64,000 nucleotides of DNA from a virus: positions 6,035-70,034 of the IMG/VR virus record IMGVR_UViG_3300028588_000020, one strand, 5' to 3'. Below the pieces are notes generated by a model. That model worked only from the letters and a program-made list of their open reading frames with translations, was not told where the DNA came from and did no database searches. Made by a program: the position numbers and the translations under genes. This document shows positions 37,820 through 38,522 of this stretch, one piece after another (positions within the stretch are counted from its first letter, which is position 1; every line of letters starts with the position of its first letter).

Positions 37820-38522
37820 AGCACCGTGGAGCCTCTCACGAGGCGCCACATGGCTGGACACTTGGGATGACGGTTCGACGCCTGCCCCGGCACCACTCCA
37901 TTGCGCGTGGATCGCAATCGAGCCGCCCAAGTGCCCAGCCATGTGGTGATGATCCGCAACGATCAGTAAGTGCCGGCCTGACTGTACGCCCTCTGGCCGG
38001 CGCTGATGCTAGGGGCAGGAATCCGGTGGAGCCGTACAGCGAGCCCGGTGGAACTGCTCAAGACCTCGGCGGGGAGCTGGGGCAAGCCGGTGAAAGCCCG
38101 GCGTGGTGCTGTATGACTGGATCCGGCCGGCTAGAACCCGGCCCGTTAAAGCCGCTGCGCAGCCTGGCAGCCGTCAACACGTAGCCGGTGAAGGTAGCCC
38201 AGCACCATGCAAGGCCGCAGTACCGCCGGGGCGGGTAGCCCTGTCCCGGCGCCACAAGAATGCAGGCTGCCCGACTGGATCCGTGCTGTGACGCTTTGAT
38301 TGCGCTGGCGGCGTGGGAGGAAGGCGGTAGAGGCGAGATTCGGCAGGGGCCAACAGCCTGCATCCTTGTGGTTCGATCGGCAGCGGCCGGCCAGTGCTTT
38401 GACGAGTGCCTGCCGGCCGCAGCCGTATCGAGCCGCTACATGACTGGCGGTTGCCGACAATAAGTTGGCTGTCCGATACCCTATGGCGCCGGCGAGGGCA
38501 ACGTCGAGCAGCCGCCAGCCAT
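37820..38522 (+). ncRNA. Large ornate structured RNA B (~700 nt)
   Basis: 21-bp, 18-bp, 10-bp and 11-bp helices with G-U and A-C pairs, a candidate pseudoknot and no credible ORF. Confidence 0.65.

Follow-up and report, generated by a model that had tools for sequence, protein, structure and literature searches.

An uncultured soil phage carries, beside a tRNA gene, a string of separately folded RNA modules that includes two new conserved phage RNA motifs

The species 1 and species 2 RNAs of phage T4 are small structured RNAs that lie among the phage tRNA genes and are matured from the same precursor. In the early transcripts of phage T7, long imperfect RNase III hairpins are placed between functional units and leave protective 3' hairpins. 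Self-cleaving ribozymes are common in phages, and among bacterial RNAs the Y RNA YrlA combines a long closing stem with a tRNA-like T arm. The GOLLD and ROOL RNAs are "often near tRNA islands", and GOLLD env-38 is found downstream of a Met-tRNA (10.1101/2024.12.08.627333). In ROOL, a covarying kissing loop that was first read as a tertiary contact proved to be quaternary, that is, intermolecular (10.1101/2024.12.08.627333). Here we describe RNA B, a phage locus that shares with GOLLD the setting beside tRNA genes, as it is flanked by a tRNA-Met and a tRNA-like element. The covariance models of GOLLD (RF01998) and ROOL (RF03087) gave no match even at E<=10 when run over 36800-38800 and 37800-38640. 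We find that RNA B is not one RNA but consists of several modules that fold separately, and that two of these are new, conserved phage RNA motifs.

The window, by which we mean the whole stretch of DNA that was analyzed, comprises 64 kb of an IMG/VR phage contig that is linear, 72 kb long and estimated to be 77% complete, with a G+C content of 65%; RNA B occupies its positions 37820-38522. Baseplate and tail genes are found at 1-18 kb of the window and genes encoding RecT, an exonuclease, an SbcC-like protein and NinB at 27-34 kb, while a small-terminase match at 40720 is weak. The last codon-biased gene ends at 36926, after which no open reading frame shows the third-position G+C bias of this genome until about 38700. 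Since codon bias is absent and Pfam returned no match in any frame of 36927-38700, a coding reading of the RNA B stretch was rejected. The only Rfam matches in this gap are two elements of the + strand that delimit RNA B: the tRNA-Met (CAT) at 37742-37817 on its 5' side (ARAGORN; Rfam tRNA, 61.1 bits) and an aberrant tRNA-like element at 38525-38598 on its 3' side (ARAGORN; Rfam tRNA, 38 bits). Within 37820-38522, neither Rfam nor ARAGORN detected a tRNA cloverleaf. The tRNA-like element has a 4-bp anticodon stem, an 8-nt anticodon loop (CUGCACAA) and an acceptor stem that can be extended to about 10 bp with one G-A; no homologue was found among the contigs of relatives, and its anticodon arm, run as a search pattern, gave zero matches. 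A search for sigma-70 promoters and intrinsic terminators within 35400-39400 found none, which is consistent with read-through transcription.

All helices listed in a preliminary description of RNA B were recovered by repeat search and sequence reading. The 21-bp helix 37846-37866/37926-37946 (95% complementary, one A-C) is extended by 8 bp between CGGTTCGA (37871-37878) and TCGAGCCG (37918-37925); together they form hairpin H1 (37846-37946, + strand), which is closed by CCACA...UGUGG. The same closure is found in the lineage-specific hairpin H3 (38252-38371, + strand), whose 18-bp stem 38252-38269/38354-38371 is 94% complementary and again contains one A-C. A GC-rich hairpin recovered by the repeat search, 38378-38391/38412-38425, corresponds to the also lineage-specific H4 (38378-38425, + strand; GCAGCGGCCGGC/GCCGGCCGCAGC), for which repeat search and fold agree and no homologue was found. 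Hairpin H5 (38436-38526, + strand; CTGGCGGTTGC/GCAGCCGCCAG) is part of the minimum-energy fold; this variant of the same hairpin class has a 19-bp stem with one A-C and two G-U and abuts the tRNA-like element. Reading of the sequence likewise placed the 10-bp stem at 37969-37978/37995-38004 and the complementarity of CTGTACG (37982-37988) to CGTACAG (38033-38039), and the duplication of CCAGCCATGTGG at 37935 and 38515 was confirmed by repeat search. The best fold of the + strand over 37815-38600 has an energy of -417.6 kcal/mol, whereas dinucleotide shuffles give -367.2 +/- 8.4 (z -6.0); by the same measure, the - strand reaches a z of -4.6. The fold exceeds chance expectation, and the view that RNA B is a genuine structured non-coding RNA of the + strand is upheld.

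Relatives of this phage were not readily detected. A blastn search with 36900-38750 against INPHARED phages matched the tRNA-Met only, a PLSDB search returned nothing, and the spurious open reading frame 37867-38181 had no match as a protein query. The 254-aa, 84-aa, NinB and baseplate proteins had no close relatives in IMG/VR, and the first of them was an orphan in a set of 5.8 billion proteins. When 160 viral and metagenome loci around homologues of the methyltransferase encoded at 43566-44993 were searched by nhmmer, no RNA homologue was found; G001, a 93-kb relative reached through this methyltransferase, carries neither a tRNA nor an RNA homologue. The motif GCCGG(N)TGAAGGTAGCCC had 9 matches in IMG/VR that were treated as chance: 5 are in coding DNA (L083 among them) and the other 4 showed no extended similarity. 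Relatives were obtained with the small-terminase-like protein (48-53% identity, contigs of 73-95 kb), and further ones with a 136-aa Cys-rich protein encoded 5' of the HU gene. The resulting contigs, L185-L198, are syntenic. In most of them a gap of 0.9-3.4 kb that contains no genes comes after the HU gene; L197 and L198 have no large gap. Using nhmmer, we detected homologues of the neighboring RNA A in L185, L187 and L188. RNA A and RNA B have no significant similarity to each other (alignment score of 35, against 33.5 +/- 4.8 in shuffles). Homology of the relatives to RNA B was limited to its middle part, 37955-38214, which corresponds to two modules that we named B1 and D, and no sequence homologue was found in relatives for 38216-38524, the stretch containing H3, H4 and H5. 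Both motifs are absent from Rfam 15, and no Rfam family matches in RNA B.

Several genes and sites around the cassette are worth recording in their own right. The 136-aa Cys-rich protein (window 35041-35451) belongs to a large protein family, with 295 matches at E<=1e-3, and, in relatives, is always encoded just 5' of HU, the gene ahead of the RNA cassette; its placement after nin-type genes may recall a Q-type late antiterminator. The gene at 43566-44993, a candidate terminase, was rejected as such and encodes a ParB-N-type N6/N4 DNA methyltransferase (Pfam N6_N4_Mtase in relatives). A second methyltransferase gene is found at 41359-42582. The open reading frame 60867-61397 matches PHROG 986, "RNA-binding protein" (E 2.8e-23), and might encode a partner of the cassette RNAs. 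Finally, a promoter-like element, AAGACTnGC...TATGATTC, is conserved between the window, where it lies 3' of the cassette (39265-39300), and L194, where it occurs directly 5' of the RNA A homologue (1546-1582) and again in the middle of the cassette (2970-3008).

Module B1 spans 37955-38105 of the + strand, as delimited by covariance model R2 and pair counts. It begins with the 10-bp stem mentioned above (H2, 37969-37978/37995-38004), continues with helix Pa (38014-38018/38054-38058), which encloses hairpin Pb (38023-38026/38045-38048), and then presents a conserved AAGACC, hairpin P3 (38064-38082) and, as its last hairpin, P4 (GCCGGUGAAAGCCCGGC, 38086-38102), all on the + strand. Model R2 was built from three sequences and the support for B1 comes from four lineages only: R2 scores the window at 154 bits, L194 at 154 and L187 at 146, and it recovered a fourth, divergent member in L193 (8278-8429; 38.9 bits, E 4e-9). 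B1 also contains a 7-bp loop-loop pairing of the + strand between 37982-37988 and 38033-38039, which covaries across these four lineages. The paired sequences read CUGUACG/CGUACAG in the window, CCGCAUG/CAUGCGG in L187, CUGCACG/CGUGCAG in L194 and AGCAGGG/CCCUGCC in L193, so that 7/7 pairs form in each of the first three and 6/7 in L193. Three positions are double-changed between the window and L187, and nearly the whole helix is different in L193. This contact had been proposed as a pseudoknot. The pairing itself stands, being kept by compensatory changes in four lineages, but it should be called a kissing contact and not a classic H-type pseudoknot, because it joins two hairpin loops, those of the 10-bp stem and the inner hairpin. 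Judged from its sequence, it is a conserved kissing pairing that would look alike whether formed within one molecule or between two.

Module D, a conserved multi-helix junction at 38098-38214 of the + strand, was overlooked in the preliminary description, yet it is the best-conserved element of RNA B. Identified with model R1 and by covariation, it is closed by a 10-bp helix, P1 (CGUGGUGCUG/CAGCACCAUG), and contains a variable hairpin as well as an inner hairpin whose loop reads CUAGAAC in the window and CUAG(A/U)AC across members. The joining strands AUGAC, CCGUUAAAGCCG, ACGU and GAAGGUAGCCC are invariant, and short helices form among them, AUGAC pairing with the GGU of GAAGGUAGCCC and CGU with ACG. 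Model R1 finds nine strong members, which score 61-122 bits, and a further one that scores 36.6 bits. In the nine-member alignment, 90.8% of cells are paired, compared with 33-46% after the partners are shifted by 1-3 columns; double changes are found in 17/31 pairs and 0/500 shuffles reach any observed measure, figures that are biased toward the structure as the alignment was fitted to R1. An alignment of five D sequences made independently of R1 (MAFFT/RNAalifold) points in the same direction, with compensatory changes in 11/31 pairs. A first D pattern gave zero matches against genome contigs. Two pattern scans derived from the D alignment added one IMG/VR phage (L200) and four bacterial genomes, namely an Oxalobacteraceae MAG, Herminiimonas contaminans, a Noviherbaspirillum MAG and a Pseudomonadota MAG. 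All four bacterial copies are located in prophage early regions beside genes for a CI-type repressor, RecT, Sak4, Gam and an exonuclease, and they are co-oriented with the genes downstream. The motif is rare: in a sample of 151 genomes of the family to which the Herminiimonas genome belongs, 3 have it. The copy in Herminiimonas contaminans (contig00005, about 54.3 kb; L202 6278-6400, 69.4 bits) resides in a prophage of a cultured bacterium. The B1 and D motifs are shared with other phages of Burkholderiales bacteria, the carrier of RNA B being an uncultured soil phage.

The two modules travel separately. In the window, B1 and D adjoin and overlap by a few bases; in L187 they are about 850 nt apart, and in L194 their order is swapped, with D before B1. 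L185 is devoid of B1, L193 has B1 and lacks D, and D stands alone in L200-L204. Because B1 and D are reordered, separated or found singly between phages, RNA B is not one RNA of fixed architecture. The initial treatment of 37820-38522 as a single unit therefore does not hold: only 37955-38214 has homologues, and even the two halves of that part are parted in L187 and swapped in L194.

The long hairpins H1, H3 and H5 belong to a class of stems closed by CACA...UGUG. H5 repeats the 3' arm of H1 exactly, and their 5' arms differ by two transitions. At its apex, H1 carries GGTTCGA, which resembles a tRNA T arm, although no clean T arm is formed. A counterpart in the same relative place is present in L194 (3199-3319, CCACAUGGCUGA/UCAGCCAUGUGG), where one pair is compensatory and a T arm lies inside the hairpin, and a second counterpart of this class in L187 (5246-5337). 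A search for stems closed by CACA...UGUG, at least 11 pairs long and spanning no more than 260 nt, gave 31 matches at nine loci, all inside gene-free gaps; the flanking DNA, about 166 kb that includes 62 kb of the window, yielded none, a restriction that may partly reflect the rarity of any long hairpin in coding DNA. Such a hairpin lies immediately 5' of D in eight of the nine members, and in L185, L187, L194, L200, L201, L203 and L204 its end coincides with the start of the closing helix of D. The D of the window is the exception, with no CACA...UGUG hairpin directly 5'; here H5 instead ends at the tRNA-like element. To our knowledge, the CACA...UGUG hairpin base has no counterpart in known RNAs. 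The B1 loop contact and D covary; H1, H3, H4 and H5 are supported by class membership and show no covariation of their own.

Other small elements recur. Short hairpins with nine-base loops, GUGAAAGCC or CGGGUAAGA, are found at 38086-38102 of the window and at 2905-2935 and 3172-3195 of L194, and hairpins of this type also lie just 3' of D in L203 and L204. Positions 37639 in RNA A and 38187 in D carry a related motif, GGUGAAGGUAGCCC. L194 contains two tRNA-like T-arm fragments that were missed by ARAGORN and are mascRNA-like by Rfam (1894-1937 and 3233-3287; 16.7 and 17.7 bits), the latter being inside the H1-type hairpin.

Base-pair composition indicates which strand is the functional RNA. 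G-U pairs far outnumber A-C in the conserved helices, at 27:6 for D and 14:1 for B1, and likewise, at 48:5, across 28 hairpins of the CACA...UGUG class from eight phage contigs (the window and seven relatives), and therefore the + strand, which is that of the tRNAs and flanking genes, is the selected RNA. These counts also bear on the recurring A-C mismatches noted previously. There is indeed one in each of the three long hairpins of the window, but they are no trait of the family: 3 of the 5 A-C/C-A mismatches among the 28 hairpins are the window's own. The single A-C in each long hairpin is a local peculiarity.

Sequences of RNA B were also found in RNA libraries. Fourteen leaf-litter metatranscriptomes (43-111 Mb each) share the same 14-18 of 62 sampled 31-mers of 37820-38432, with counts of 17-18 in eight runs and 14 in six; their habitat and year match those of the probable source sample, and they may stem from one campaign. 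The count was unchanged when 38433-38600 was dropped from the query, so the expressed words all fall within 37820-38432. Runs labelled bat, wastewater, groundwater and "organism A" contained small shares of the words, which provide no basis for assigning a habitat. The recurrence of one small subset of words fits a discrete abundant RNA of an estimated 160-200 nt, which may be the B1-D core.

From the structure, conservation, strand, modularity and presence in RNA libraries documented above, we favor the reading, at a probability of about 0.6, that RNA B is part of a modular + strand RNA cassette. This phage lineage would carry the cassette between the HU gene and the packaging genes, as a set of independently folding modules that may be gained, lost and reordered between phages. 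B1, compact and held by its 7-bp loop-loop contact, and D would be the conserved functional cores, with H1, H3 and H5 as punctuation between modules. We suppose that a long transcript is cut, along with the tRNAs, by host nucleases specific for tRNA and for double strands, that the CACA...UGUG hairpins act as cleavage or 3'-end-protecting elements, and that the released B1 and D cores accumulate as stable small RNAs that could bind a host or phage factor. These mechanistic details are put forward with much less confidence than the cassette picture as a whole. A bolder proposal, possible though we consider it unlikely, is that the B1-D core represents a new functional class of phage RNA with its own activity, a mobile module among Burkholderiales phages whose insertion or cut sites are marked by the CACA...UGUG hairpins. 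Candidate activities would include a rearranged self-cleaving ribozyme, a polymerase- or ribosome-binding element and a multimer assembled through the loop contact.

The main rival, which we regard as improbable, is a cis-acting leader role for D: together with its 5' hairpin, it could act on the polymerase that transcribes it, as in antitermination by put of HK022, or serve as a riboswitch-like element or in translational control of the downstream genes. The D copies of L200-L204 are intergenic in early operons and co-oriented with the next genes, a start codon lies about 19 nt 3' of D in L201, the invariant junction strands resemble a binding pocket, and the cassette of the window is situated between nin-type early genes and packaging genes with no terminators. 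Against such a role, D of the window, L185, L187 and L194 lies deep within a non-coding array of kilobase scale that has no open reading frame close by. Moreover, the next gene is anywhere between 19 and about 400 nt away from D, neither a terminator nor a sequestered ribosome-binding site is paired with D, and the comparison with put is one of position alone. By analogy with GOLLD and ROOL, RNA B, possibly together with RNA A, could also be a large ornate RNA that multimerizes through intermolecular loop-loop pairing. Several traits would fit: RNA B is phage-encoded and highly structured, lies directly 3' of a tRNA-Met, combines a conserved core with variable flanks and has a covarying loop-loop pairing, while GOLLD and ROOL are themselves found near tRNA islands and a kissing loop of ROOL is quaternary (10.1101/2024.12.08.627333). 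However, neither model matched at E<=10, only the 14-18 of 62 sampled words are present in the RNA libraries, and modules that are reordered, 850 nt apart or single elsewhere argue against a fixed tertiary architecture. We hold this alternative to be quite improbable.

Two further explanations concern activities closer to the sequence itself. Twister-sister (RF02681) aligns over its full length to 38051-38119. The conserved CAAGGCC ... GCCgGUGCAAGCCcGGC of that ribozyme is matched there by CAAGACC, a hairpin and then GCCGGUGAAAGCCCGGC, and the 850-nt insertion of L187 falls at the site of its optional stem. B1 with the 5' part of D might thus be a divergent or rearranged ribozyme of the twister-sister type that cuts the cassette. 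This is very unlikely, as the alignment reaches 17.0 bits where the gathering score is 34, its 3' strand does not contain the conserved CAU, L194 (1500-4200) gave no match at E<=10, and the strand before CAAGACC pairs upstream in the covarying helix Pa and not with the downstream P1 strand. A switch had also been proposed, in which the 5' strand at 37846 chooses between two partners, 37843-37857 pairing either locally or with 38515-38529 and thereby controlling release of the tRNA-like element. The two segments are indeed perfectly complementary (15/15), and the pairing overlaps the first bases of the tRNA-like element. Forcing it, however, costs +18.5 kcal/mol relative to the unconstrained best fold, and the local hairpin would form earlier during transcription. 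The long-range complementarity is explained by the bases of H1 and H5 being paralogous copies of a single hairpin class, CACA...UGUG, of which it is a by-product. In relatives, which do not have the tRNA-like element, no extended complementarity was found between the first and last hairpins, only short shared bases of the CACAUG type by eye. Hairpin 38436-38526 has just a few bases in common with the tRNA-like element, whose 5' end the switch was proposed to sequester. With its energy cost and its end-to-end complementarity not conserved, we consider the switch to be extremely unlikely, and the modular cassette remains the preferred reading.

How does this cassette compare with known systems? 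Like GOLLD and ROOL, RNA B is encoded by phages or prophages, is adjacent to a tRNA, contains a covarying loop-loop contact and consists of a conserved core with a variable remainder. In contrast to them, its conserved parts are two small modules, of about 150 and 117 nt, that are mobile and also occur singly. It may be likened to the species 1 and 2 RNAs of T4 as a case of small structured RNAs in a phage tRNA cluster, but its host group is Burkholderiales and its array is much longer, with a repeated hairpin class. By analogy, its long imperfect hairpins appear to separate functional units as the RNase III hairpins of T7 do. The likeness to twister-sister consists of a CAAG(A/G)CC strand, the hairpin that follows and a hairpin of 4-5 bp whose nine-base loop reads GUG(A/C)AAGCC; the cleavage-site CAU is deleted in the RNA B alignment, however, P1 is not conserved, and the would-be 5' strand of P1 pairs upstream in helix Pa, with covariation in L187 and L193. 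The long closing stem of Y RNA and YrlA, with its tRNA-like T arm, may be likened to the H1-type hairpins: H1 carries GGTTCGA with no clean T arm, and its L194 homologue has a T arm (mascRNA-like match, 17.7 bits). Genes for Ro/TROVE (PF05731) and RtcB are absent from the 72-kb contig (77% complete), TROVE control genomes being positive, and the sole Rfam Y RNA match (Deinococcus_Y_RNA, 18.3 bits versus 80) is at 38508-38623, on the tRNA-like element.

Overall, phage tRNA islands are known for large structured RNAs such as GOLLD and ROOL, and the RNA B locus presents a differently organized case. It adds two compact motifs supported by covariation and a repeated hairpin class, combinatorially assembled in the cassettes of a lineage with phage contigs of about 73-95 kb, with D also found on its own in prophage early operons, including that of the cultured Herminiimonas contaminans. 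Unlike the giant RNAs, these modules are small and separable and have a culturable carrier, which makes their function testable.
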